A DNA stretch of 64,000 nucleotides, taken from positions 479 through 64,478 of the forward strand of contig JAAFHW010000004.1 of the NCBI GenBank assembly GCA_013298525.1. Direction: 5' to 3'. The notes under the pieces were generated by a model. That model did not search any database. It saw nothing but the letters and a program-made list of their open reading frames with translations, and had not been told where the DNA came from. Source of the stretch: Flavobacteriia bacterium (GTDB lineage Bacteria; Bacteroidota; Bacteroidia; Flavobacteriales; Flavobacteriaceae). Below are positions 6,201-35,237 of the stretch, piece by piece (position 1 is the first letter of the stretch; each line of letters begins with the position of its first letter). The translations under genes and the position numbers were made by a program.

Positions 6201-8925
6201 TGTTTGGTTCAGGAGCTTTTACACCAATATAGGTTTGGTATGGAGAATACGTAGTCGAAGCCACATCAGTTGAAACATCGCCACCTTGTTCGTATACTTT
6301 AGTTATGAATGCAGCTTTCAACATTCCTGGCGCTTGACCTTGCAATGTTGGTTTTATTGGAATAGATGCACGACCATTTCCATCAACTTTTCCTGAAAAA
6401 ATATTGATTTCTTCAGTTGAAAAACTTCTTGTTGGATCGTCAAAAACGTATTTGTCAAATCCTTTAAACGTTGTAACTTGTTGTGAGAATTTGGCTTGAA
6501 CTTCCGTTTTTAAATCTTTTGCTACAGCACCGTGAAGCCATAAAACTTGAATATTATTGACATTGTTTTTGCTTGTAGAAAGAACTGCATCGTTGAAACT
6601 ATTTTTGATTTTTAAACGATTAGGTTTGATGGTTTCAATTTTCAAACTTTTGTAAAAACGAGCACCACCAACACTTACAACGGCTTCCCAATTTCCTGTT
6701 GGAGCACTGGATTGCGTTGGAACTATGAATTTATAATGACTGAAAGCCGTTCCTTTTTGAACCGATTGATACACGGTTTTTCCACTTGGATCGTTTACTC
6801 TAATTTTTATCGGATGATTTTCTGGTAATTTATTGGCGTTATCATTTAAAATAAACGACAAATACAATGTATCACCTGGACGCCAAACGCCTCTTTCTCC
6901 ATATAAATATCCTTTTAAACCTTTTTGCAAAGTCTCGCCTGAAACATCAAAATCACTTACAGATAAAGACAATTCGTCGTCCAATTTCACGTAAGTGCTT
7001 TGGTCGCCTTTGGTAACAATTGCGAAATAGGCAATTTTTTCTAATTGGAACGATGCCATTCCATCGCCATCAGTACTTGAATCGGCAATTTTTTGTTGTT
7101 GGTAATTGTATAAAGTTACAGTTGCACCCGAAACAGGATCAGTAGAAACGATATCACTAACTGCAATTGTCACTGATTTATCTGTTCCACGTTTCGCAAT
7201 TACACCTAAATCGGTTGCTAAAATATTGGTTCCAATGGTTGTGTTGTTGTAATAATAATAGTCGGTGCAAGGATCAAGACTTTCTCTGTAATCATAATCT
7301 TCATCATAGTAATAATAATCGTAATTGTTGCCGCTATAATTGACGTCGTCTTCGTTTTCTTCTTCAGAATCTTGATTTTCTTCTTCGTTATTTGGCGTTT
7401 CATTTCCACATTTGTAAAGTGAATAATTTTTCTTAAATGAAAATTCAACACGATAAATCGCACCTGGTTCTGGAGTTACAATTTTAGAAATATCTAAAGC
7501 ATAGGTATTCCATTTGGTATAATCGAGCAGGTTATTTTGTTTTAATTCGATGGTTTTTTTGGCGACTGATTGTCCAACTTGTTTTAGATTTCGAGTTCCG
7601 TTAAGTTCATTATTTTGCAAGAATTGCATGATGTTGTTTTTGTAAATTTTGTACACTTTTACATCAACAGCATTCAAATTGGCAGCTTGAAAATTAATTT
7701 TTAAATTATTAGAACTTGGTAAAATTGTACCGCTTTTAACTAATCGTACGGCTGGTTTTATTTGTTCAAATTGTAGTTTTTCAGAATAATTTTGCTTCAT
7801 TTTGTAGCCGTATTCGCTTTCAATTCCTTGAAAAACTTCGACTAGTTTTGTTCCGGCAAAAGATTGAATATTAGATTCTTCTTCAACAGCTTCAACTACT
7901 GGTGCAACATAAGCTACAGCCGAATCAACCGCAACAGCAGCAGTGTCAACAGCAACGGCTACCGAATCAACAATAGCAGTTACACTTTCGGTGATAGTTT
8001 CAGTTGAATTTCCTTTATCTACTTCAGAATTTTTGGCCTCATTACTGAAAAACACTTTCAAAACGTTGCCCATTGTGGCAAATTTCAAATTGTTAGTATT
8101 TTCAATTGCGATTAATCCTTTAAAATCTTGATCTCTTTTTAATGGATCGGAGAAGTTTATCAATAAAGATTGGTTGTTTTCGTCACCAATTTTAATATCT
8201 AAAACTTTGAATTGATTTTTGCCTGGAATTGGATATTTTACTTCACCTTCTTGCTCAATATCTGCATCATCGCCATCCCAAGCAATGGTGATTTCGCTGT
8301 CATCATCGAAGCGTTTTATTTTATCAATAGTGAATTTGAATTCCGTTGAAGTACTTGTTGCTTTATCAAAAATTATTTTTAAATCATCACCATTTTGAGT
8401 TGATTTCAACAATTTTTGAGCATCTTCAAAAGATAAATTATCAGCGGTTTTAATAGTTCCGTTTAAATAATAAGTGTCTCTATCATAGGATTGTAAGTCT
8501 AAAGTATTGACAATGAAATCTTGCTTGATGGTTTTTATGGAAAAATTAAAATTCTCCAATTCTTTTGGTGTCTTATCATTGATTTGTGAAAGGTGAAGTG
8601 TAATTTGATATAACGTATTTTGTTCCAATTTGTCTTTTGGAATAAAAGCAATGGTATTATTAGAAAGTGCCACTACTTTTCCAGAAACACTTGGAGAAAT
8701 GTCGAACAAATCTTCGTCTAATTCTTGGTTGGGTTTCCAATCATTTTTATTGAAAGCCAATTGCACACGAATATCGGAACTGACCGATACAAAACCAGAA
8801 GAAAAACTCGATATATAATCCTTGTATAAAGTGAAGTCGGAATCAAAATCGGCAGCCGATTTTTTAGAACAAGAATGCAATACAAAGATTGCAAGAAACA
8901 AACCGATTAACTTGCTGGTTTTCAT
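3232..8925 (-). CDS. Bacterial alpha-2-macroglobulin family lipoprotein (YfhM/ECAM-like), thioester type
   Basis: About 1897 aa. Lipoprotein signal MKTSKLIGLFLAIFVLHSC. Thioester motif YPHGCVEQ (CVEQ codons at 4555-4566). Length and C-terminal domain typical of the family. Sits directly upstream of pbpC. Confidence 0.9.
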   Translation of the reverse strand: MKTSKLIGLFLAIFVLHSCSKKSAADFDSDFTLYKDYISSFSSGFVSVSSDIRVQLAFNKNDWKPNQELDEDLFDISPSVSGKVVALSNNTIAFIPKDKLEQNTLYQITLHLSQINDKTPKELENFNFSIKTIKQDFIVNTLDLQSYDRDTYYLNGTIKTADNLSFEDAQKLLKSTQNGDDLKIIFDKATSTSTEFKFTIDKIKRFDDDSEITIAWDGDDADIEQEGEVKYPIPGKNQFKVLDIKIGDENNQSLLINFSDPLKRDQDFKGLIAIENTNNLKFATMGNVLKVFFSNEAKNSEVDKGNSTETITESVTAIVDSVAVAVDTAAVAVDSAVAYVAPVVEAVEEESNIQSFAGTKLVEVFQGIESEYGYKMKQNYSEKLQFEQIKPAVRLVKSGTILPSSNNLKINFQAANLNAVDVKVYKIYKNNIMQFLQNNELNGTRNLKQVGQSVAKKTIELKQNNLLDYTKWNTYALDISKIVTPEPGAIYRVEFSFKKNYSLYKCGNETPNNEEENQDSEEENEDDVNYSGNNYDYYYYDEDYDYRESLDPCTDYYYYNNTTIGTNILATDLGVIAKRGTDKSVTIAVSDIVSTDPVSGATVTLYNYQQQKIADSSTDGDGMASFQLEKIAYFAIVTKGDQSTYVKLDDELSLSVSDFDVSGETLQKGLKGYLYGERGVWRPGDTLYLSFILNDNANKLPENHPIKIRVNDPSGKTVYQSVQKGTAFSHYKFIVPTQSSAPTGNWEAVVSVGGARFYKSLKIETIKPNRLKIKNSFNDAVLSTSKNNVNNIQVLWLHGAVAKDLKTEVQAKFSQQVTTFKGFDKYVFDDPTRSFSTEEINIFSGKVDGNGRASIPIKPTLQGQAPGMLKAAFITKVYEQGGDVSTDVASTTYSPYQTYIGVKAPEPNKFGLLETGKANRFDIVAVSENGKPKSVQNLDVRIYKLESRWWWDASNDNLSNYSSSTSTIAYKNFRVSTDYSGKASISFVVPENDWGNYLVRVSDPNDGHATGTRVYIDSPYWSARSKNEDGKAATMLRFSTDKEKYAVGETAKIFFPSSEGGRALISVENGTKVVKTLWAKTKKGETTVELPITGEMAPNVYINVTLLQPHASTKNDSPIRMYGIVPIEVVDKNTVLEPQISMPDVLRPEQTVNVKVSEKQGKSMTYTIAVVDEGLLDLTRFKTPNAWDNFYTREALGVRTWDIYDDVIGAYGGKVNQVFAIGGDADLGGGKAKKANRFKPVVMYFGPFELGKGDSKTHQIKLPKYIGSVRTMVVAANKENSAYGMAEKATQVKSPLMVLASLPRKISPSENVTIPVTLFATEKNIKNVTLQIKTNNAVRVLGKASQIVKFTEPDEKMAYFNLSVGNITGIGKVQIIATSGKEKSTYDVEIDVMNPNPITTTYTDIIIEPNSSKKISWDLFGVTGSNKSKMEVSSVPTVDFSRRLDYLIQYPHGCVEQTTSSVFPQLYLNDVMDLDATYKQRIQKNVTAGIQKLGNFQVANGGFAYWPGNAEADDWGTSYAGHFLIEAEKKGYVLPISFKNKWISYQKKMAKQWRFEKQYGNDFAQAYRLYTLAIAGSADLASMNRLRETVGISNESKLRLAATYAIIKQNSAGLALLSKSMIDEQNEDGYYYYYGSNERNRAMALETLVLLGQKQKAFAMATKLAKNLSSNEWMSTQTTAYGLYAMSKFAQSNGSKGVSVQYTNGGKSVVINTNKTVAQRNLSLVSGTNSVTIKNNKNNTIFVRVLNSGILPVGKENVVQNNLSANVVFKDRKGKAISVTKIAQGTEFIAEVTLTNRKNERVDNIALSQILPSGFEIVNTRYTEFGESTSNVADYIDIRDDRANYYFGLRGGETRTFKILLNASYLGKYYLPGLQCEAMYDNEFLARTKGQWVEVVK

Positions 8926-9077: not shown

Positions 9078-9521
9078 CTACTTTCGTTTTTCAGCAAAAA
9101 AACGTTTCATTAAGTCGCCACATTCTTGAGCTAAAATGCCTTGATTTACTTGAGTTTTTGGATGTAATTTGGTTCCTAAAGTTTGAAATCCGCGTTGTTC
9201 GTCTCGAGCACCAAAAACAATTTTGGAAATCTGACTCCAATACAAAGCACCAGCGCACATTTGACATGGTTCAAGCGTAACATATAAAGTGCAATCTTTC
9301 AAGTATTTTCCTCCAAGGAAATTGGCAGCGGCAGTTATCGATTGCATTTCGGCGTGTGCTGTTACATCGTTTAATAATTCCGTAAGATTATGACTTCTTG
9401 CAATGACTTTATTGTCAATTACAATGATGGCGCCAACAGGAATTTCACCTTTTTCAAAAGCAGTTTCGGCTTCTTGCAAAGCTTTTTTCATGAAGTATTC
9501 GTCGGTGAAAATGTTTTCCAT
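9078..9521 (-). CDS. tadA: tRNA-specific adenosine deaminase
   Basis: CDA-fold zinc motifs HAEMQ and PCQMCAGAL, about 147 aa. ATG at 9521 preferred over the upstream TTG. Confidence 0.9.
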   Translation of the reverse strand: MENIFTDEYFMKKALQEAETAFEKGEIPVGAIIVIDNKVIARSHNLTELLNDVTAHAEMQSITAAANFLGGKYLKDCTLYVTLEPCQMCAGALYWSQISKIVFGARDEQRGFQTLGTKLHPKTQVNQGILAQECGDLMKRFFAEKRK

Positions 9522-9581
9522 AGAACAAAAATACAATTTTGATGCAATTTTTCGTTATAATTGTATAGTCAACATTTTATT

Positions 9582-10076
9582 ATGGAAAATAAATTTAAAG
9601 TTACAGTTCCAAAACCATGTCATGAAAATTGGAACTTAATGAATCCTACAGAAAAAGGAAGATTTTGTGATGTGTGTACGAAAAGTGTGGTGGATTTTAC
9701 GGACAAATCTTCAACAGAAATTCAAGAATATTTTTTAATAAATAAAAATCAACGAGTTTGTGGAAGATTTAGGAATGAACAAATAAGTAAGTTTGATATT
9801 AAAATCCCAATAACCGTATTAATTAAACAAAAAACATTTCAAAAAGCATTTTTATTAGCTTTATTTATTGCGATGGGAAGCTCACTTTTTAGTTGTAAAA
9901 ACCACAATGATGAAACATTAGGAGAAGTTTCAGTGGTTGACTCTACCAAACAAATTAAAGAAGAACCACAGAGAACGATGGGAATAATACTTCCACCAAA
10001 GGAAAAAGAAACACTTATAGGTGATACTATATATATTTCAACTGATTCAACAAAAATAAAGAAAATTGAAAAATAG
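9582..10076 (+). CDS. Hypothetical membrane-anchored protein with Cys-rich N-terminus
   Basis: N-terminal CHENW...CDVC cluster (zinc-ribbon-like), then one hydrophobic segment AFLLALFIAMGSSLFSC. No family recognised. Confidence 0.55.
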   Translation: MENKFKVTVPKPCHENWNLMNPTEKGRFCDVCTKSVVDFTDKSSTEIQEYFLINKNQRVCGRFRNEQISKFDIKIPITVLIKQKTFQKAFLLALFIAMGSSLFSCKNHNDETLGEVSVVDSTKQIKEEPQRTMGIILPPKEKETLIGDTIYISTDSTKIKKIEK

Positions 10077-10108
10077 AAATTTTCATTTTCATGTTGTACA
10101 TTTGCTAC

Positions 10109-11890
10109 ATGTCAGAAAATTTACTTCAAAACATCAATAATCCATCCGATTTAAAAAAATTGGAACCACCGCAATTGCCTCAATTGGCTAAAGAATTGCG
10201 TGATTTTATTATTGATGTGGTTTCAGTAAAGGAAGGTCATCTTGGCGCAAGTCTTGGTGTGATTGAATTGACAATTGCTTTGCATTATGTTTTTGATACA
10301 CCTAATGATTTATTGGTTTGGGATGTAGGTCATCAAGCTTATGGGCATAAAATCCTAACTGAACGAAAAGAAAATTTTCATACCAATCGGCAACTTGGTG
10401 GCATTTCTGGATTTCCTAAACGTAGTGAAAGTGTTTACGATACTTTTGGCGTTGGACATTCATCAACTTCTATTTCTGCCGCTTTAGGAATGGCGATTGC
10501 TTCTCAATTGAAAGTTGAAGATAAACATCATATTGCTGTTATTGGTGACGCATCAATTGCAAGCGGAATGGCATTTGAAGGATTAAATCATGCTGGAGTT
10601 ACGGATGCTAATTTATTGGTGATTTTGAATGATAACGCTATCGGAATTGACCCAAGTGTTGGCGCTTTGAAAAACTACTTAACTTCTGTAAAAGAAGGTA
10701 AAAATCCGAAGCAGAATAATATGATTAAATCGTTGAATTTTGATTATTGTGGACCAATTGACGGACATGATTTTGAAGTTTTAATTTCCGAATTAGAAAG
10801 ACTAAAGAAAGTAAAAGGTCCAAAATTTCTGCATATAATCACAACAAAAGGTAAAGGTTTACTGCAAGCGGAAGAAGATCAAGTAAAATATCACGCACCT
10901 GGAAAATTTGACAAAACTACTGGTGAAATCCATCCAAAATCGGAAGAACATTTGCCTCCAAAATTTCAAGATGTTTTTGGGTTGACTTTGGTCGAATTGG
11001 CAACAAATAATCCAAAAATTATTGGGATTACACCTGCAATGCCAAGTGGAAGTTCGTTAAAATTCATGATGAATGCTTTTCCTAAAAGAGCTTTTGACGT
11101 TGGAATTGCAGAACAACATGCTGTAACTTTAGCAGCAGGAATGGCAACGCAAGGAATGGTAGTTTTTTGCAATATCTATTCTACATTTTTGCAACGCGCT
11201 TATGACCAAGTGATTCATGATGTGGCTTTGCAGAATTTACCTGTAATTTTTTGTTTGGATAGAGCAGGATTGGTTGGTGAAGATGGCGCAACGCATCACG
11301 GAGTTTTTGATTTGGCGTATTTGCGATGCATTCCAAATATGATAATTTATGCTCCTAAAGATGAAATCGATTTGCGAAACATATTGTATACTGCTTCATT
11401 AGGATTGAATCATCCGATTGCTATTCGATATCCGCGCGGAAGAGGAAAATATTCAAATTACGAATTAAAAATTACGAATTACGGATTTCAGAATATTGAA
11501 ATTGGGAAGGCACATTTGCTGAAAAGCGGAACTAAAATTACAGTTTTATCAACAGGATTTATCGGTAACAATGTAAGTTTGGCTTTAGATAAAATTGCAA
11601 ATGCTAATGAAATTGCTCACTATGATTTTGGATTTGTAAAACCATTGGACGAAAAGTTGTTGCATGAAATTTTCAATTCATTTGACATCATAATAACTAT
11701 TGAAGATGGAGCAATCAAAGGTGGATTTGGTTCTGGAATTATCGAATTTGCATCTGAAAATAATTATAAAAATACCATAAAAACGCTCGGAATTCCTGAT
11801 GATTTTATCGAACATGGAACAGTAGAAGAGTTGCAACAAATCTGTAAAATTGACGTTAAAAGTTTAAAAAAGCTTTTTTCTACTATTTGA
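10109..11890 (+). CDS. dxs: 1-deoxy-D-xylulose-5-phosphate synthase
   Basis: Full-length match to Dxs signatures: GHLGASLG, WDVGHQAYGHKILT, thiamine-diphosphate motif GDASIASGMAFEGLNHAG, and the transketolase C-terminal part. Confidence 0.93.
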   Translation: MSENLLQNINNPSDLKKLEPPQLPQLAKELRDFIIDVVSVKEGHLGASLGVIELTIALHYVFDTPNDLLVWDVGHQAYGHKILTERKENFHTNRQLGGISGFPKRSESVYDTFGVGHSSTSISAALGMAIASQLKVEDKHHIAVIGDASIASGMAFEGLNHAGVTDANLLVILNDNAIGIDPSVGALKNYLTSVKEGKNPKQNNMIKSLNFDYCGPIDGHDFEVLISELERLKKVKGPKFLHIITTKGKGLLQAEEDQVKYHAPGKFDKTTGEIHPKSEEHLPPKFQDVFGLTLVELATNNPKIIGITPAMPSGSSLKFMMNAFPKRAFDVGIAEQHAVTLAAGMATQGMVVFCNIYSTFLQRAYDQVIHDVALQNLPVIFCLDRAGLVGEDGATHHGVFDLAYLRCIPNMIIYAPKDEIDLRNILYTASLGLNHPIAIRYPRGRGKYSNYELKITNYGFQNIEIGKAHLLKSGTKITVLSTGFIGNNVSLALDKIANANEIAHYDFGFVKPLDEKLLHEIFNSFDIIITIEDGAIKGGFGSGIIEFASENNYKNTIKTLGIPDDFIEHGTVEELQQICKIDVKSLKKLFSTI

Positions 11891-29578: not shown

Positions 29579-29713
29579 TGTATTATAATTTAATAAATTA
29601 AAGAGCAAAGATAAAATAAGTTTGATAATAAATTTGTAGTATTAATTTGTTTAATTGATTTGAAATTTAATAAAATAAACGATATTTGCACAAATAACTA
29701 CAACGATTTCGTA

Positions 29714-30724
29714 ATGGAAGAACGCAATAAAACCTTAGGTGAATTTATCATTGAAAATCAAAATGCTTTTCAGTATTCCTCAGGAGAATTATCAAGAATT
29801 ATAAACTCAATTCGACTGGCAGCAAAAGTTGTTAACTACAAAGTAAATAAAGCTGGATTGGTTGATATTGTTGGAGCTGCAGGAGAACAAAATGTTCAAG
29901 GTGAAGACCAACAAAAATTGGATGTTTATGCCAATGAAGTTTTTATTCAAACGTTGATCAATCGTGAAATTGTGTGTGGAATCGCTTCAGAAGAAAATGA
30001 CGATTTTATTACTGTTGCAGGTTCAGATAATTCTCATAGTAATAAATATGTGGTTTTAATGGATCCTTTAGATGGTTCATCTAATATTGATGTCAATGTT
30101 TCTGTTGGAACAATTTTTTCTGTTTTTAGAAGAAAAACTCCTGTTGGAACTCCAGTAACAAGTGAAGATTTTTTACAACCAGGAACACAACAAGTAGCTG
30201 CAGGATATGTAATTTATGGAACTTCAACCATGTTGGTTTATACAACTGGTCATGGTGTAAATGGTTTTACTTTAAATCCAGCTATTGGAACTTTTTATCT
30301 TTCACATCCAAATATGCAGTATCCAAAAGATGGAACTATTTATTCGATAAATGAAGGAAATTATGTGCATTTTCCTCAAGGAGTGAAAGATTATATAAAA
30401 TATTGTCAGTTAGAAGAAGGAGACAGACCTTATACTTCAAGATATATTGGAAGTCTAGTTTCCGATATGCATCGAAACATGATTAAAGGTGGAATTTATA
30501 TTTATCCAACAAGTTCAAAAGCTCCAAATGGTAAACTTAGATTGTTGTATGAATGTAATCCAATGGCTTTTATTGCTGAGCAAGCTGGCGGAAAAGCAAT
30601 TGATGGTTATAGAAGAATTATGGAAATTCAACCAACAGAATTGCACCAAAGAGTACCTTTTTTCTGTGGAAGTTACAATATGGTTAGTAAGGCAGAAGAA
30701 TTTATGAAAGCATCTGATTTGTAG
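29714..30724 (+). CDS. fbp: Fructose-1,6-bisphosphatase, class 1
   Basis: Motifs [21 protein letters not shown] and [12 protein letters not shown] at 29714 preferred over the TTG at 29660. Confidence 0.93.
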
Positions 30725-30782
30725 AACAAATTCTACAAATACATAAAATACTGAAAAGTAGCTTAGTTGAAAGAAAAATTAC

Positions 30783-30790
30783 TAAATTTG
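30783..30790 (+). promoter_or_regulatory. Candidate Bacteroidota -7 promoter box (TAnnTTTG) for the GTPase module
   Basis: TAAATTTG lies 35 nt upstream of the ATG at 30825. No convincing -33 element at ideal spacing. Confidence 0.3.
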
Positions 30791-30824
30791 CAAACATTTT
30801 TTTCAACAAAAACTACTTACTTAT

Positions 30825-31187
30825 ATGTCTAAAAATCAATCAAAAGAAACAGAAGCTCCAGCAGTAAACCCACTAGAATCTGCTCAAAGATTGGAAGCTA
30901 TCAAAAACCTGATTTTTGGTGAAAACATTCAGCAAATTGATCAGGAATTTCAAGATATTAAAAATCACATTGAAAAAAGAAAAGAGGAATTAGAAGACTT
31001 TATTGCTGAAACTCGTAAGGAGTTGAACAGTACTATCGATAATTTAGCTACCGATTTAAACATCAGAATTACTGATTTAGAGAACAGTATGAATGATAAA
31101 ACGGATGAATTAAACCACAAAAAAGTCGATAGAAACTTACTTGGAACGCTTCTAGTTTCTATGGGTGAAAAAATAATGAAGGACTAA
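30825..31187 (+). CDS. Hypothetical cytoplasmic coiled-coil protein (120 aa), first gene of the GTPase module
   Basis: Heptad-rich acidic sequence, no signal peptide or TM segment. N-terminal motif LEAIKNLIFGEN resembles the N-terminus of the next ORF. Confidence 0.6.
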   Translation: MSKNQSKETEAPAVNPLESAQRLEAIKNLIFGENIQQIDQEFQDIKNHIEKRKEELEDFIAETRKELNSTIDNLATDLNIRITDLENSMNDKTDELNHKKVDRNLLGTLLVSMGEKIMKD

Positions 31188-31196
31188 TTCATTATT

Positions 31197-31988
31197 ATGA
31201 CAGATTCAGAGAAATTAATTAAGCTCAAAGAACTTCTTCTTAGTGAGGACAGAGATTTTGCGCAAAATATTTTACAAAAATTAGATTCTCTTGAAGATAC
31301 GGTTAACACGCACGAAAAACTTTCTGAAAAAGTAAACCCAATTATTGATAAAAAAATAGACACTTTTGTGGAAGAAATTCCAACAAAATTAGGTCCAGTT
31401 ATTGCCGATGCTTTAACTAAATCGCAAGATAAAGTGGTGGAAGCTCTTTTTCCAATCATTGGTAAAATGATAAAGAAATACATTCAGCAAGAAATAAAAG
31501 CGCTTTCAGATTCTATTAATAGCCAAGTTCAAACTACTTTTTCAATTAAAACCTGGCAACGAAAAGTTAAAGCGATTTTCACAGGAGTTTCCGAAAAAGA
31601 AATCATTTTGAGCGAAATGAATCAAGCGTCTGTCGAACAAGTTTTCGTTATAGAAAAAGGTTCAGGTTTGATTATTTCAAGTGCATCCAAACAAGAAAGT
31701 ATCGATGAAGATATGATTGCTGGTATGTTAACAGCGATTAAAAGTTTCGTTGAAGATGCCTTCAAAAAAGACCAACAAAGCTTAGAATCAATTCAATATG
31801 AATTATTTGAAATTCACATTCAAAATTTTACTTCCTATTATTTTGCAGTTGTAATTTCAGGAGGATTTGATGCTTTTTTCAAAAATAAATTAGAAAATAA
31901 ATTATTCGATATTGCTTCTCATATTAAAACAGATGCTATCGATAAAGAATATATAACCATTAAGTTAACAGAATTCATCCATGAATAG
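31197..31988 (+). CDS. Hypothetical protein with helical N-terminal half and Roadblock/LC7 (MglB)-like C-terminal domain
   Basis: Residues ~143-245 (VEQVFVIEKGSGLIISS...DEDMIAGMLTAIKSFVEDAF...YELFEIHIQNFTSYYFAVVISGG) have the strand-helix-strand pattern of Roadblock/LC7 domains. Inference only. The stop overlaps the GTPase start by 8 nt. Confidence 0.6.
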   Translation: MTDSEKLIKLKELLLSEDRDFAQNILQKLDSLEDTVNTHEKLSEKVNPIIDKKIDTFVEEIPTKLGPVIADALTKSQDKVVEALFPIIGKMIKKYIQQEIKALSDSINSQVQTTFSIKTWQRKVKAIFTGVSEKEIILSEMNQASVEQVFVIEKGSGLIISSASKQESIDEDMIAGMLTAIKSFVEDAFKKDQQSLESIQYELFEIHIQNFTSYYFAVVISGGFDAFFKNKLENKLFDIASHIKTDAIDKEYITIKLTEFIHE

Positions 31989-32475
31989 TTCGAAAAAAGT
32001 TGTTTTAGTAGGACATTTTGGTGTTGGAAAATCTTCTTTGATGAGGCGATTTGTTCAAAACACATTTTCTGATAATTATATTGTTACTATTGGTGTTCAT
32101 ATTCTCAAAAAAGAAATTAAAATTGAAGAACTAAATCTAACTTTAGTAATTTGGGATATTGAAGGAAAAGACGATATTCAAAAAGTACGTTCGTCTTATC
32201 TTTTAGGTACTTCAGGATTTATTTATGTTATCGATCCAACGCGTTCACAAACCTATGAACGATTTAATGAAGAGATTGATTTTTTAAAAACAACCTATCC
32301 AACTTCAAAAATTGTTTCTGTTGCCAATAAATCAGATTTAATTGATATTGAGGAATTTAAAAAATTACTAGAGCAAGAAAACATTTCAATTGACTATTTT
32401 GCAAGTGCCAAAGAAGGAATTGAAGTTGAAAATTTATTTCAAACAATTGGACTGAAAATGGTAAAAAATGTTTGA
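31981..32475 (+). CDS. Ras/Rab-like small GTPase (prokaryotic Ras superfamily)
   Basis: G1 GHFGVGKS, switch I T in VTIGV, G3 WDIEG, G4 NKSD, G5 SAK. 164 aa, no lipidation tail. Confidence 0.85.
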   Translation: MNSSKKVVLVGHFGVGKSSLMRRFVQNTFSDNYIVTIGVHILKKEIKIEELNLTLVIWDIEGKDDIQKVRSSYLLGTSGFIYVIDPTRSQTYERFNEEIDFLKTTYPTSKIVSVANKSDLIDIEEFKKLLEQENISIDYFASAKEGIEVENLFQTIGLKMVKNV

Positions 32476-33985
32476 GCAAATTAGAAATAAATATCTCTAT
32501 AATAAAACTCAAATTGTAGTTTTAGACAAGCAAGGAATTGTTTTGCATTCCGATGATTTGCTTTATAAAATTCAGAAACAAACTTCAATTTCTGATTTTC
32601 ATCCTTTTTTTGAGACCATTATTTCTTTAATTGATTTAGAATACAACGAGTTTACATTTAGCTGTATTCATATTGATTATGAAGGAATTAAAAAAACTAT
32701 TGACGTCATTTTCAATTCAGGTTCAAATAATGAAAATCCGTTTCTAATTTTTATTGACTTTACAGAACACTACAATAATTTTCAAAGCATAGCCCAAGAA
32801 AAAAATGAATCTGTTCTTAGTTTTCATTTGGCAGAAATAAAAAACCAGCAATTACAATCGGAGAAGAATTTTAAAAACAAATTCTTAGCCAATGTAAGTC
32901 ATGATTTGAAAACACCATTAAGCGCTTCGTTATGGTTTTTGGGAATGTTAGAAAAATCTGAAATCACTTCTTCTCAAAAAGAAATGATTGCATTAATGAA
33001 GGAAACAACAAATCATATAAAAGAGCTAGTAGATGATATTTTAGATTTATCAAAAATAGAAATGGGGCAAATAAAACTTCAAACTGCTCCATTCGATTTT
33101 ATTGAAATGCTTTACCATATTGAAAAAATTATAGCTCCAAAAGCAAGAACAAAAAAGCTTGATTTTCAAATTGTAAAAGATAAAAACCTGCCAAAATTAG
33201 TGGTTGGTGATAAAACTAGAATTGTGCAAATCATTATCAATTTGCTAGATAATGCTATAAAATTTACCAAAAAAGGCAGTGTTGTTCTTTCAGTTGTTGT
33301 AAAAGAAATTGAAAGTAATAATGCTACAATTTTGATAAAAGTTGCCGATACAGGAACAGGAATAAAAGCTAATGAAAAAGGCGAAGTTTTTCAAAGTTTC
33401 AAAAAACTTCACGATTCCAAAAAAATTGATGGTTCTGGTTTAGGACTTTCTATTGTTTCAAATCTATTAGAATTAATGGGAGGTAAAATAGATTATCAAA
33501 CAGAATTAAATGTCGGTACCACTTTTGAGATTGAAATTCCTTTAGAAATTAAAGAAAGTGAAGTTGGTACTAAACCATTTGAATTTATTGAAATCATCAA
33601 TAAACTTAATGTACTTATTGTAGAAGACGATGAAATTAATCAACTTTTATTGATGAAATTGTTATTAAATCATGGTGGATTTAATATTAATATTGCTAAT
33701 AATGGTTTGCAAGCTATTGAAATGGTAGAACAAAATCCATATGATTTAATTTTTATGGATAAAGAAATGCCCCAAATGGATGGCTATCAAACTACAGTTG
33801 TTTTGAGGGAAAATATAAAAAAAGAAATTAATTCTATTCCAATTATTGGCGTTTCAGGCCATCCTGTTGCTAATCAAAAGGAGATTTTTGACGCAATGGG
33901 TTTTAATGGGTATATAACAAAGCCATACAAGAAAGAAGAAATTTATGAAATGGTTTATGAAGTATTAAAACTAAAAAAGTCCTAA
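32468..33985 (+). CDS. Soluble hybrid sensor histidine kinase/response regulator
   Basis: H box SHDLKTP (His codon 32900-32902), N box LLDNAIKFT, DTGTGI, GSGLGLSI. C-terminal receiver (VEDDE, FMDKEMPQMDG, ITKP). No TM segment. The first ~130 aa are unassigned. Confidence 0.9.
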   Translation: MFEQIRNKYLYNKTQIVVLDKQGIVLHSDDLLYKIQKQTSISDFHPFFETIISLIDLEYNEFTFSCIHIDYEGIKKTIDVIFNSGSNNENPFLIFIDFTEHYNNFQSIAQEKNESVLSFHLAEIKNQQLQSEKNFKNKFLANVSHDLKTPLSASLWFLGMLEKSEITSSQKEMIALMKETTNHIKELVDDILDLSKIEMGQIKLQTAPFDFIEMLYHIEKIIAPKARTKKLDFQIVKDKNLPKLVVGDKTRIVQIIINLLDNAIKFTKKGSVVLSVVVKEIESNNATILIKVADTGTGIKANEKGEVFQSFKKLHDSKKIDGSGLGLSIVSNLLELMGGKIDYQTELNVGTTFEIEIPLEIKESEVGTKPFEFIEIINKLNVLIVEDDEINQLLLMKLLLNHGGFNINIANNGLQAIEMVEQNPYDLIFMDKEMPQMDGYQTTVVLRENIKKEINSIPIIGVSGHPVANQKEIFDAMGFNGYITKPYKKEEIYEMVYEVLKLKKS

Positions 33986-34003
33986 GAAATTAGGACTTTT
34001 TTA
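33975..34003. terminator. Bidirectional terminator overlapping the kinase stop codon
   Basis: AAAAAGTCCTAA-GAAA-TTAGGACTTTTTT. Confidence 0.65.
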
Positions 34004-34023
34004 TATTTTAAAGAATAATTATA

Positions 34024-34455
34024 TTACTTATTCATGTGAGTCATTTCAAAAGTAAATGTGTCTAAATCAACACCCATTACTAATAAAGACAATGCTTTGT
34101 CAACTATGTAATTTACATTTCCTGGAGTAAAACCTAATGCCAAAGCAAAACGAGTTAAAATTTCTTTTTGCTTAGGTCCAAGAATGTGATCTGCATAAAC
34201 CATTCTTGATAAATCATACAAACGCTCCAATCTGTGCGCATAAGAATACGGCGGATTGATTGGGTATTTCAATGGATTTTCAAGAATTTCTTCATATTCA
34301 GCTGCCGAAATTTCTAATCTTACAGCTAGCTTATCCAAAAATTCTTTTTCTTCTTTGCTCAAATCTCCGTCAGAAGTGGCAACACGAACAATAGCCGAAA
34401 AATGACCTTTATTTCTCGTTTTAAATTCGCTATCAAATAAATCTGAAAATGACAT
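34024..34455 (-). CDS. TerB-like (tellurite-resistance TerB / DjlA N-domain-like) protein
   Basis: Pattern AIVRVATSDGDLSKEEKEFLDKLAVRLEIS is typical of the TerB fold. ATG at 34455 preferred over the TTG. Confidence 0.55.
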   Translation of the reverse strand: MSFSDLFDSEFKTRNKGHFSAIVRVATSDGDLSKEEKEFLDKLAVRLEISAAEYEEILENPLKYPINPPYSYAHRLERLYDLSRMVYADHILGPKQKEILTRFALALGFTPGNVNYIVDKALSLLVMGVDLDTFTFEMTHMNK

Positions 34456-34599
34456 AATTATAATGGTTTTATTATGCAAATATAATTCAAATTCCTCAAA
34501 AACCGAAAATGTTTTTCATCGAATTTAAGATAATCTTTTCTGCCAAATTCAAAATAAATTGTAAGTTTACATTCCTAAAAATTGCTAAAAACTCAACCT

Positions 34600-35193
34600 A
34601 TGTCAGATTTTTGGATTTATTTCAAAATTGGTCTCAACCACGTTTTAGACATCAATGGCTATGACCACGTTTTATTTTTAATTGCATTAACCGTTCCTTA
34701 CGCTTTTAAGGATTGGAAAAGAGTACTTTTATTAGTAACCATTTTCACCATCGGACACACACTAGCTTTGATGCTTTCTGTTTTTAATATCGTAACTGTT
34801 CAAGCTAATATTGTCGAATTTCTGATTCCAATTACGATTCTAATAACGGCATTTTTTAACCTTTTTACCGCCGGAAAATCATCCAAACAAGAAAGCATAA
34901 CCTTTATTGGAGCCATAACTTTATTCTTCGGAATCATTCACGGATTAGGGTTTTCTAACTATTTTAAAGAAATCCTTCCAGGAAAACCAACTGACAAATT
35001 GTGGCCATTACTAGAATTCGCAATCGGAATTGAAGCCGCGCAAATTATTGTAGTTTTAGTAGTTTTAATTTTATCATTCATTGTTCAAACCTTATTCCGA
35101 TTCAGCAAACGCGATTTTACATTAACCATGTCAGCATTTGTCATTGGAGTTGTAATTCCGTTAATTATTGAAAGTCCAATTTGGAAACGATAA
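34600..35193 (+). CDS. HupE/UreJ family membrane protein
   Basis: N-terminal GLNHVLDINGYDHVLFLIAL and six hydrophobic segments. Confidence 0.8.
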   Translation: MSDFWIYFKIGLNHVLDINGYDHVLFLIALTVPYAFKDWKRVLLLVTIFTIGHTLALMLSVFNIVTVQANIVEFLIPITILITAFFNLFTAGKSSKQESITFIGAITLFFGIIHGLGFSNYFKEILPGKPTDKLWPLLEFAIGIEAAQIIVVLVVLILSFIVQTLFRFSKRDFTLTMSAFVIGVVIPLIIESPIWKR

Positions 35194-35237
35194 TCTTGGA
35201 TTAGAAGCAAATCAGTAGTTATATTTGTAAACCATTT

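Follow-up and report, generated by a model that had tools for sequence, protein, structure and literature searches.

The DNA analysed here, a window of 64,000 nucleotides (nt) from a Flavobacteriia bacterium (assembly GCA_013298525.1, contig JAAFHW010000004.1, positions 479-64,478 of the forward strand), contains four adjacent open reading frames (ORFs) that make up a member of the Group 1 Rup (Rup1) small GTPase system. The four genes encode a coiled-coil protein, a protein whose C-terminal domain is predicted to resemble Roadblock and longin proteins, a Rab-like GTPase and a soluble hybrid histidine kinase. The features of the locus are as follows, in window positions.

30783-30790, + strand: putative Bacteroidota -7 promoter box, TAAATTTG, which fits TAnnTTTG
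30825-31187, + strand: ORF1, cytoplasmic coiled-coil protein of 120 amino acids (aa), the DUFY of Group 1 Rup
31197-31988, + strand: ORF2, soluble DUFX protein of 263 aa with a helical N-terminal half and a predicted Roadblock/longin-like C-terminal domain
31593-31919, + strand: Roadblock/longin-like domain of ORF2 (residues 133-241), predicted from an AlphaFold 2 (AF2) model and Foldseek matches
31981-32475, + strand: ORF3, Rup1 Ras/Rab-like small GTPase of 164 aa
32468-33985, + strand: ORF4, soluble hybrid histidine kinase (HK) of 505 aa, composed of N-domain, HisKA, HATPase_c and receiver (REC)
32468-32851, + strand: PAS-like N-terminal domain of ORF4 (the N-domain, residues 1-128), a proposed GTPase-coupling input module
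32918-34022, + strand: exchangeable output segment with dimerisation/histidine phosphotransfer (DHp), catalytic and ATP-binding (CA) and REC domains, replaced in F. chungnamense
33972-34003, both strands: bidirectional terminator-like hairpin overlapping the ORF4 stop codon

An initial annotation of the window, made without database searches, had placed the four same-strand ORFs in one expression unit on the basis of their junctions and of a promoter box and a hairpin at the two ends. The coordinates and junctions are as it described them. ORF1 and ORF2 are spaced by 9 nt, and start/stop overlaps of 8 nt join ORF2 to ORF3 (ATGAATAG, 31981-31988) and ORF3 to ORF4 (ATGTTTGA, 32468-32475). The promoter box lies 35 nt 5' of the ORF1 ATG and corresponds to the -7 promoter consensus of Bacteroidota, TAnnTTTG. 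Of 79 related loci, 49 have such a box 20-50 nt 5' of their ORF1 homologue, compared with 9% in shuffled upstream sequence. A scan for sigma-70 promoters returned sites no more common than in shuffles, and the sigma-70 model is not relevant for Bacteroidota promoters. At the other end, the hairpin has a 14-pair stem, a 4-nt loop and T-runs on both strands, and its score is terminator-like on both. As the initial annotation had also stated, none of the four proteins holds a hydrophobic segment of transmembrane (TM) grade (19-residue windows, maximum Kyte-Doolittle value 1.25, a crude test).

For comparison, 80 related loci were fetched from Flavobacterium, Lacinutrix, Algibacter, Tamlana, Nonlabens, Ulvibacter, Kordia and metagenome-assembled genomes (MAGs) of Sphingobacteriales. 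The proposed survey of gene neighbourhoods showed that the four genes co-occur: the order ORF1, ORF2, ORF3, ORF4 on one strand was kept in 77 of the 80 loci, down to an ORF2 identity of 48%, and the three exceptions were two contig ends and one missed start. The overlap between ORF2 and ORF3 measures 8 or 14 nt in 58 of these 77 loci, and the ORF3/ORF4 junction lies between -8 and +23 nt in all but one of them (76/77). The conserved stop/start overlaps, the shared order and strand and the bracketing promoter box and terminator identify the four ORFs as one real operon of soluble proteins. The housekeeping genes on either side are conserved as well, namely fructose-bisphosphatase (FBPase) in 63, a GNAT gene in 61 and aspartokinase in 58 of the 80 loci, so that this is a stable chromosomal locus and not an island. 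We also considered that four functionally unrelated genes might lie side by side by chance, or that they belong to a mobile or defence island. This explanation retains next to no probability and is effectively refuted by synteny: order, strand and overlapping junctions persist from Flavobacteriaceae to Sphingobacteriales MAGs, an equivalent gene set is present in Nostoc (see below), and the flanks are those of a housekeeping region. A PADLOC screen gave no match to a defence system, only noise from coiled-coil and P-loop proteins; with the conserved flanks in view, the defence-island reading was dropped. Downstream, a convergent TerB-like gene (34024-34479, - strand, 151 aa) ends 38 nt from the ORF4 stop codon and is served by the same bidirectional hairpin. 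It adjoins the operon in 54 of the 80 loci, which may reflect plain synteny or a functional link.

The initial annotation knew of no functional description of such a gene set. This claim of novelty fails, because the system was described and named in 2014. Wuichet and Søgaard-Andersen (Genome Biol Evol 2014, PMC4316618) divided the small GTPases of prokaryotes between an MglA and a Rup family and, by comparing genomes, described for Group 1 Rup a set of four conserved neighbours. The first is a coiled-coil cytoplasmic protein, DUFY. It is accompanied by a protein with a DUFX domain, often followed by a TM helix and a peptidoglycan-binding OmpA domain, and by a GTPase without the catalytic Gln of G3. 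The fourth gene encodes a signalling output (HK or GGDEF/EAL) with an invariant Gln in its N-terminal region, which was proposed to be supplied in trans. The same authors likened Group 1 Rup to the actinobacterial conservon, so that both the components and the analogy of the initial annotation had been published. Their Table S2 lists six Bacteroidetes members with the order DUFY, DUFX, Rup, all without OmpA, among them Flavobacterium branchiophilum FBFL15_2718 (163 aa) and Lacinutrix. Of the refuting condition that the initial annotation had set itself, an already characterised named system, the name and the description thus apply, but experimental characterisation does not: in the literature on Rup GTPases and for 12 locus tags of published Group 1 members, we found nothing besides the 2014 paper and no experimental study of any Rup1 system.

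Two loci connect the window to this published set. The F. branchiophilum locus that encodes the ORF4 orthologue holds the same four genes, including the 163-aa Ras-family gene of Table S2, and its flanks are those of the window, with FBPase upstream and TerB-like, HupE/UreJ, dCMP deaminase and S41 peptidase genes downstream. The second locus was found on the Nostoc flagelliforme megaplasmid pNFSY07 by tblastn with ORF2 (E ~1e-25). Here the order is a hypothetical protein of 215 aa, an 'OmpA family protein' of 731 aa, a 'Rab family GTPase' of 174 aa, a hypothetical protein of 176 aa and an ATP-binding protein. The ORF1 family profile matches the 215-aa protein, which stands in the DUFY position (E 7.5e-10). 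The ORF2 profile (residues 41-238) matches residues 203-404 of the OmpA protein (E 4e-49), where a hydrophobic stretch and the OmpA part follow. ORF3 is 38% identical to the Nostoc GTPase, which carries GDFGVGKT, WDIEGS, NKSD and SAK and has Ser at the Gln position. The 176-aa protein gives a weak match to the N-domain profile, with a gapless alignment over D-x-T-E...Q-S-x-x-Q-x-x-N-E. The synteny with F. branchiophilum and the homology of all four components to the Nostoc locus make membership solid: the locus is a Flavobacterium member of the published Group 1 Rup system, not a new kind of system.

Further observations were made at the Nostoc locus (L083 in our numbering of the comparison loci). 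The 176-aa protein and the 622-aa 'ATP-binding protein' (9180-11560) overlap by 19 nt, and a PAS-like segment appears to span the junction; the two may be a single gene that a frameshift or the annotation has divided. The Rup genes are followed by a partner-switching set of an anti-sigma regulatory factor, a SpoIIE phosphatase and a STAS protein (L083 11589-13715). Elsewhere, the 414-aa protein P0309 of the N-domain family carries a SpoIIE phosphatase in direct fusion. Both cases are hints that Rup systems may be connected with outputs of the partner-switching type.

Membership still leaves differences within Group 1 Rup. All four components, their order, the Gln-less G3 and a conserved Gln in the N-terminal region of the output are shared. 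For the last of these the window offers two candidate residues, Gln15 and Gln110. In cyanobacteria and proteobacteria DUFX comes with a TM helix and OmpA, whereas ORF2 stops after the DUFX domain, has neither and gives no OmpA Pfam match. Outputs elsewhere include GGDEF/EAL, whereas that of the window is HK-REC. In Flavobacteriia the Rup1 system has its simplest form.

ORF3, the GTPase of the operon, matches Pfam Ras at 1.3e-28 and carries the five G boxes that had been recognised at the outset (G1 GHFGVGKS, G2 Thr36, G3 WDIEGK, G4 NKSD, G5 SAK). Among 80 orthologues GHFGVGK[ST], Thr36, WDxEG, NKxD and SAK are invariant or near-invariant. The closest relatives of solved structure are all Rabs (Rab35 at 1e-19, and Rab5, Rab1 and Rab7 at ~1e-19). 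The description of G3 as Rab-like stands for its W-D-x-x-G frame and not for its catalytic residue, since the Gln is replaced: Lys63 occupies the position of Ras-Gln61, where 35 of the 80 orthologues have Asn, 30 Lys and 10 Gln. An invariant Phe takes the place of Ras-Gly12, and His that of Ras-Ala11. From Ras biochemistry it is established that a side chain at position 12 obstructs the arginine finger of a GTPase-activating protein (GAP), so the Phe makes a RasGAP-like mechanism for ORF3 unlikely. As G1, G2, G4 and G5 are invariant, the Ras-Gln61 position is variable and the Ras-Gly12 position is Phe, we propose that ORF3 would be competent for GTP hydrolysis but dependent on a GAP.

The ORF2 family is large, with more than 1,500 clusters and relatives encoded in at least 521 species genomes. 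ORF2 itself belongs to no Pfam family. An AF2 model was built from 59 homologues, with a mean predicted local distance difference test score (pLDDT) of 60 and values of 70-86 for residues 133-241. The N-terminal half is helical and poorly modelled. Residues 133-241 adopt an alpha-beta-beta-alpha-beta-beta-beta-alpha topology with five antiparallel strands in the model (DSSP: helices 133-141, 171-190 and 226-241; strands 145-153, 159-164, 198-201, 204-210 and 214-221). The top 50 Foldseek matches in the PDB were longin or Roadblock proteins without exception. The best was zeta-COP (4.6e-4). AP sigma subunits, the C-terminal domains of RagA/C, Mon1-Ccz1 and the Ykt6 longin domain were among the others, together with dynein LC7/Roadblock, LAMTOR/MP1-p14 and Ego3. 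At the level of primary sequence no support was found: the ORF2 family profile had no match among PDB sequences at E up to 10, Robl_LC7 and DUF742 were both absent from Pfam scans of the 59 homologues, and three of these 59 gave marginal matches to Fuz_longin_1 (best E 0.047). The Roadblock/LC7-like C-terminus of ~100 aa that the initial annotation had suspected is thus borne out at fold level, and the model supports a Roadblock/longin fold for the C-terminal ~110 residues. Proteins of this fold serve as GAPs, guanine nucleotide exchange factors (GEFs) or platforms for small GTPases, as in MglB, CvnB, Ragulator and Mon1-Ccz1.

Upstream of this domain, ORF2 contains three P-[IV]-I-x3-[IL] motifs (NPIIDKKI, GPVIADAL and FPIIGKMI) at a spacing of exactly 19 residues, with prolines at positions 48, 67 and 86 (ORF2 residues 47-92, window 31335-31472). 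The DUFX protein of Nostoc has four or five units similar to these motifs. A sub-threshold Pfam match to DUF6120 was seen at residues 81-114 in 53 of the 59 homologues. Database names are misleading for this family. ORF2 and its homologues P0004, P0026, P0036 and P0071 (263-270 aa) go under the name 'cell envelope biogenesis protein OmpA' in NCBI and UniRef, and the JGI label for some of them is 'hemerythrin'. Both names were rejected because no such domain is present (NCBIfam hemerythrin E 0.09-0.18). The OmpA name was probably transferred from DUFX homologues fused to OmpA, such as the 731-aa Nostoc protein.

ORF1, which gives only sub-threshold Pfam matches of the coiled-coil type, sits 5' of ORF2 in 77 of the 80 loci. 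The initial annotation had pointed to a helical motif common to ORF1 and ORF2. The motif is present (LEAIKNLI at ORF1 23-30, LIKLKELL at ORF2 7-14), each segment is conserved inside its own family, and similar segments occur in the Nostoc counterparts. Profile-profile comparison detected no homology between the two families (hhalign probability 0.7%); the motif was therefore rejected as a sign of homology and is best described as a short conserved pattern.

ORF4 is, as first described, a complete HisKA/HATPase kinase with a receiver and about 130 N-terminal residues of no family. The Pfam scan placed HisKA at 136-200, HATPase_c at 247-360 and Response_reg at 382-496 and gave no family match for residues 1-130. 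Across related loci the kinase residues His145 and Asn258 and the motifs D294-x-G-x-G and G322-x-G-x-G are invariant, as is Asp431 of the receiver wherever a receiver is present. The AF2 model of full-length ORF4 reached a pLDDT of 82.5 overall and ~90 over residues 1-98. In the model the N-domain consists of a cap helix, two strands, two short helices and three strands, and then a continuous helix runs into the DHp (helices 2-11, 41-44, 46-54 and 99-163; strands 14-19, 24-28, 61-71, 74-83 and 92-97). D97-F-T99-E100 lies where the last strand passes into the linker helix, with Asp97 in 84% and Thr or Ser99 in 96% of 144 representatives of the N-domain family. A D-[IV]-T-[ED] ('DIT') motif at precisely this site is a hallmark of PAS domains. 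The best Foldseek match of the ORF4 model was the hybrid kinase ShkA (2.6e-23), and alignments of 380-400 columns were obtained with the LOV and PAS kinases YF1, SB2F1, VicK and WalK (entries including 4gcz, 8a3u and 4i5s). Foldseek was run with the full-length model and could not isolate the N-domain, so that its likeness to PAS is drawn from these long alignments, the topology and the D-x-T-E motif. Thirteen diverse N-domains had no match to the Pfam PAS families at E up to 10. Residues 1-128 of ORF4 thus model as a divergent PAS-like domain. Since per-member Pfam scans were negative, the folds of both ORF2 and the N-domain are read from AlphaFold models.

Is this domain an ordinary PAS sensor for a small molecule, with the GTPase, ORF1 and ORF2 merely localising or scaffolding the kinase or acting in parallel? 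The topology and the D-x-T-E motif would fit such a sensor, and so would a conserved H45-P-F-F-E49 cluster and Cys66, which fall at the usual site of the PAS pocket (a position inferred from topology). However, only 59-71% of representatives have His45 and Cys66, a poor level for residues that would hold a cofactor, and no Pfam PAS subfamily is matched. The domain is also extremely rare. A word-indexed search with the 130-aa N-domain alone returned 6 fragments, and an exhaustive profile search was used instead; it recovered only 322 clusters among 1.84 billion representatives, always with the match starting at residue 1. Moreover, every N-domain seen in genomic context adjoins a Rup GTPase, and GTPase and N-domain are duplicated as a 1:1 cassette (see below). 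We therefore regard the small-molecule sensor as improbable and favour the reading in which the N-domain receives its input from the GTPase.

Several lines of evidence tie the N-domain to the GTPase. The outputs to which it is fused vary, including HK, HK-REC, HK-REC-HPt (with a histidine phosphotransfer domain, e.g. in Flexithrix dorotheae) and SpoIIE phosphatase, and 56 of the best 150 matches are stand-alone N-domain proteins. In every locus with a Rup gene, the N-domain protein is encoded directly 3' of it. Six loci carry a second Rup GTPase with its own stand-alone N-domain protein of ~200 aa between the ORF2 and ORF3 homologues (L050 6807-8437; L052, L066, L070, L071 and L075 at ~6795-7893). 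These ~200-aa proteins have a helical tail and no ATPase domain, and L050 encodes an additional N-domain of 127 aa. Two further loci have only a 116-aa stand-alone N-domain inserted in the ORF2-ORF3 interval (L048 6871-7221 and L059 6883-7233). In eight loci of the Lacinutrix/Bizionia type, a single GTPase gene is followed by two tandem N-domain hybrid kinases of ~507 and ~508 aa (L036 7423-10549, and likewise L038, L041, L045, L054, L058, L061 and L078). One switch may feed two kinases there.

A natural exchange of the output was found by comparing the window with F. chungnamense. The two DNAs are 93% identical over 29600-32917 and 92% identical over 34023-35230, with no similarity between. 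The left breakpoint, 32917, corresponds to ORF4 residue ~150, just past the H-box His145, and F. chungnamense continues with a different, unrelated kinase core that lacks a receiver (kinase of ~362-363 aa; L002 7722-8414). With the breakpoint after His145, the N-domain and linker remain with the GTPase and the output is exchanged. Close Flavobacterium relatives hold both alleles, of ~505 aa with and ~362 aa without a receiver. Divergence of the GTPase correlates more strongly with that of the N-domain (r 0.905) than with that of the kinase core (0.861), and the difference is larger in close pairs (0.88 vs 0.70); as shared phylogeny confounds such correlations, this co-divergence is suggestive only.

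These observations bear on the direction of signalling. In the reverse arrangement, as in the conservon, the kinase would be the sensor and the GTPase with ORF1 and ORF2 the output: the ATP-bound or phosphorylated state of the kinase would determine whether the GTPase complex assembles or which nucleotide state it is in, and the complex would then act on a further target. This is the working model of the actinobacterial G-protein system, for which Wuichet and Søgaard-Andersen (2014) posit the GTPase as output while drawing the analogy to Group 1 Rup. It would also fit that the locus has no gene for a response regulator, and the receiver of ORF4 might serve as a sink for phosphate instead of relaying it. 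But it is the N-terminal domain that stays constant beside the GTPase while the C-terminal modules vary, both in the fusions described above and in the GGDEF/EAL outputs of the 2014 study. Likewise, the swap of the kinase core between close relatives looks like one input with interchangeable outputs, and the additional GTPases are adjoined by N-domain proteins that have no kinase part. We consider the reverse direction unlikely. With the input domain constant and the outputs variable, the pattern speaks for an action of the GTPase on the kinase and not the other way round.

We thus consider it fairly probable that in this Group 1 Rup module ORF2 and ORF1 set the state of the Rab-like GTPase, which in turn gates the kinase through the N-domain. 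That the N-domain is the GTPase-coupled input is suggested by its sensor position with a single helix leading into the DHp, and by its rarity, its invariably N-terminal place, its varied outputs, the cassette duplications, the core swap and the co-divergence. In such a module ORF3 would be the switch. The Roadblock/longin-like domain of ORF2 would set its nucleotide state as a GAP, a GEF or a platform, by analogy with MglB, CvnB, Ragulator and Mon1-Ccz1, and the helical N-terminal half of ORF2 and the coiled-coil ORF1 would provide a scaffold or an input. In one of its nucleotide states ORF3 would bind the PAS-like N-domain, and binding would be passed through the continuous linker helix to the DHp, altering autophosphorylation of His145 and transfer to Asp431. 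An HPt protein or response regulator encoded elsewhere would carry the phosphoryl group onward. The genes and their operon layout, their conservation, the homology to published Group 1 Rup loci, the predicted folds, the modular N-domain and the intact catalytic residues are observed; the physical contacts, the direction of signalling and the GAP or GEF roles are all inferred here. The GTPase-gated phosphorelay that the initial annotation proposed by comparison with the conservon was a reasonable conjecture and remains one, now strengthened by the cassette duplications and the output swap.

The N-domain may in addition complete the Gln-less active site of the GTPase. In its strict form, the 2014 hypothesis makes the N-domain itself the GAP, inserting its conserved Gln in trans, and leaves ORF2 as a GEF or an anchor (Wuichet and Søgaard-Andersen, 2014). 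The Ras-Gln61 position is indeed not conserved in the GTPase. In the N-domain family, by contrast, Gln15 (94%) and Gln110 (95%) are near-invariant among the 144 representatives, as are Asp79 (97%), Gly23, Pro46, Tyr102 and Asn113, and both Gln residues are invariant in 68 ORF4 orthologues. Gln106, Gln110, Asn113 and Glu114 furthermore align without gaps with the Nostoc counterpart. In the model, however, Gln110 is part of the long linker helix into the DHp, where conserved polar residues are common for signal transmission, while Gln15 is Glu in the Nostoc protein (manual alignment). Roadblock proteins such as MglB are, besides, GAPs themselves. That the N-domain and not ORF2 is the GAP we hold to be rather doubtful, if slightly less so than the reverse direction of signalling. 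This variant is compatible with gating of the kinase by the GTPase and does not exclude it.

A number of points weigh against the gating model. The ORF2 model is weak overall (mean pLDDT 60) and its Foldseek E-values are modest (~5e-4), and neither the ORF2 fold nor the N-domain fold has support from Pfam or from PDB sequences. The Gln that 10 of the 80 GTPase orthologues retain at the Ras-Gln61 position weakens the idea of a Gln supplied in trans. Shared phylogeny, as said, confounds the distance-matrix correlations. PAS domains usually bind small ligands, and the N-domain could have a ligand of its own. The actinobacterial G-protein system, which is the analogue studied best, has a working model that runs in the opposite direction, with the kinase upstream of the GTPase. 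No HPt or response-regulator partner is encoded at the locus, and the literature holds no interaction, nucleotide-binding or phosphorylation data for any Rup1 system.

Beyond the published description, the present analysis assigns a predicted fold to two domains, finds the N-domain to be rare and modular, and adds the duplications of GTPase and N-domain as a cassette and the natural exchange of the output. The fold predictions turn DUFX into a candidate Roadblock/longin protein and the N-terminal region of the output into a candidate PAS-like, GTPase-coupled input, and so give concrete hypotheses on which proteins touch; the duplications and the swap support the proposed wiring. Taken jointly, these results allow a tentative reading to which we would give somewhat less than an even chance: the ORF2 domain would be a genuine Roadblock/longin regulator of the Rup1 GTPase, and the N-domain a dedicated GTPase-effector module for interchangeable outputs (phosphorelay, PP2C phosphatase, c-di-GMP). 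If true, bacteria would possess, in a lineage other than that of MglA, the partnership of a Ras/Rab-lineage GTPase with a longin/Roadblock protein that is known from eukaryotic Rab GEFs and Rag-Ragulator. The prediction of 2014 that Rup GTPases do not act together with MglB homologues, made when DUFX and the N-terminal region had been given no folds (Wuichet and Søgaard-Andersen, 2014), would then need revision. A bacterial model of a Rab-like switch, made up of four proteins that are all soluble, would be gained as well. With four small soluble proteins, intact kinase and receiver sites and no membrane or peptidoglycan anchor, the system is well suited to reconstitution. In later papers Rup1 appears only as a group in phylogenies, where it falls together with eukaryotic Rab/Ras/Rho/Ran and Asgard RasL, yet it is this group for which we found no experimental study.

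Among known systems outside Group 1 Rup, three invite comparison. MglA-MglB of Myxococcus and Thermus likewise has a small GTPase beside the gene for a Roadblock-fold regulator, MglB being a GAP and possibly a GEF. The differences lie in the components themselves. ORF3 belongs to the Rup family, to which the 2014 classification assigns the Flavobacteriia homologues, and has a canonical G3 Asp and Rab-like best matches. The predicted Roadblock-like domain of ORF2 forms the C-terminal third of a 263-aa protein and gives no Robl_LC7 sequence match, and MglA-MglB acts on motility machinery whereas the output of the window is a kinase. Membership in the MglA/MglB family was rejected on these defining features.

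The second comparison is with eukaryotic Rab and Rag GTPases and their longin/Roadblock regulators. Rabs are the nearest solved relatives of ORF3, and the nearest folds of the ORF2 domain are those of such regulators. The eukaryotic systems differ in that ORF2 has no detectable sequence homology to their regulators, in that the locus has no membrane-trafficking context and in that its output is a two-component kinase.

The conservon (CvnA-D) is the closest parallel in design, a four-gene operon that also joins a Ras-superfamily GTPase, a Roadblock-fold protein and a histidine kinase. It is restricted to Actinomycetota, current models put its kinase before the GTPase in the pathway, and it is built from other parts. 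CvnD is of the MglA family, whereas ORF3 is Rup/Rab-like with a canonical G3 Asp and Rabs as nearest solved relatives. CvnB is a stand-alone Pfam Robl_LC7 protein and CvnC is DUF742, neither of which is matched by any of the four window proteins. CvnA is a membrane HAMP kinase with a C-terminal LPxR and no receiver, whereas ORF4 has no TM segment, no HAMP match and a terminal receiver. As the defining features of CvnD, CvnB/CvnC and CvnA are all lacking, conservon membership was rejected. By analogy, the locus probably works as the conservon does, as a G-protein switch wired to a kinase, and if this is confirmed it would be a second, independent bacterial wiring of a G-protein to two-component signalling.

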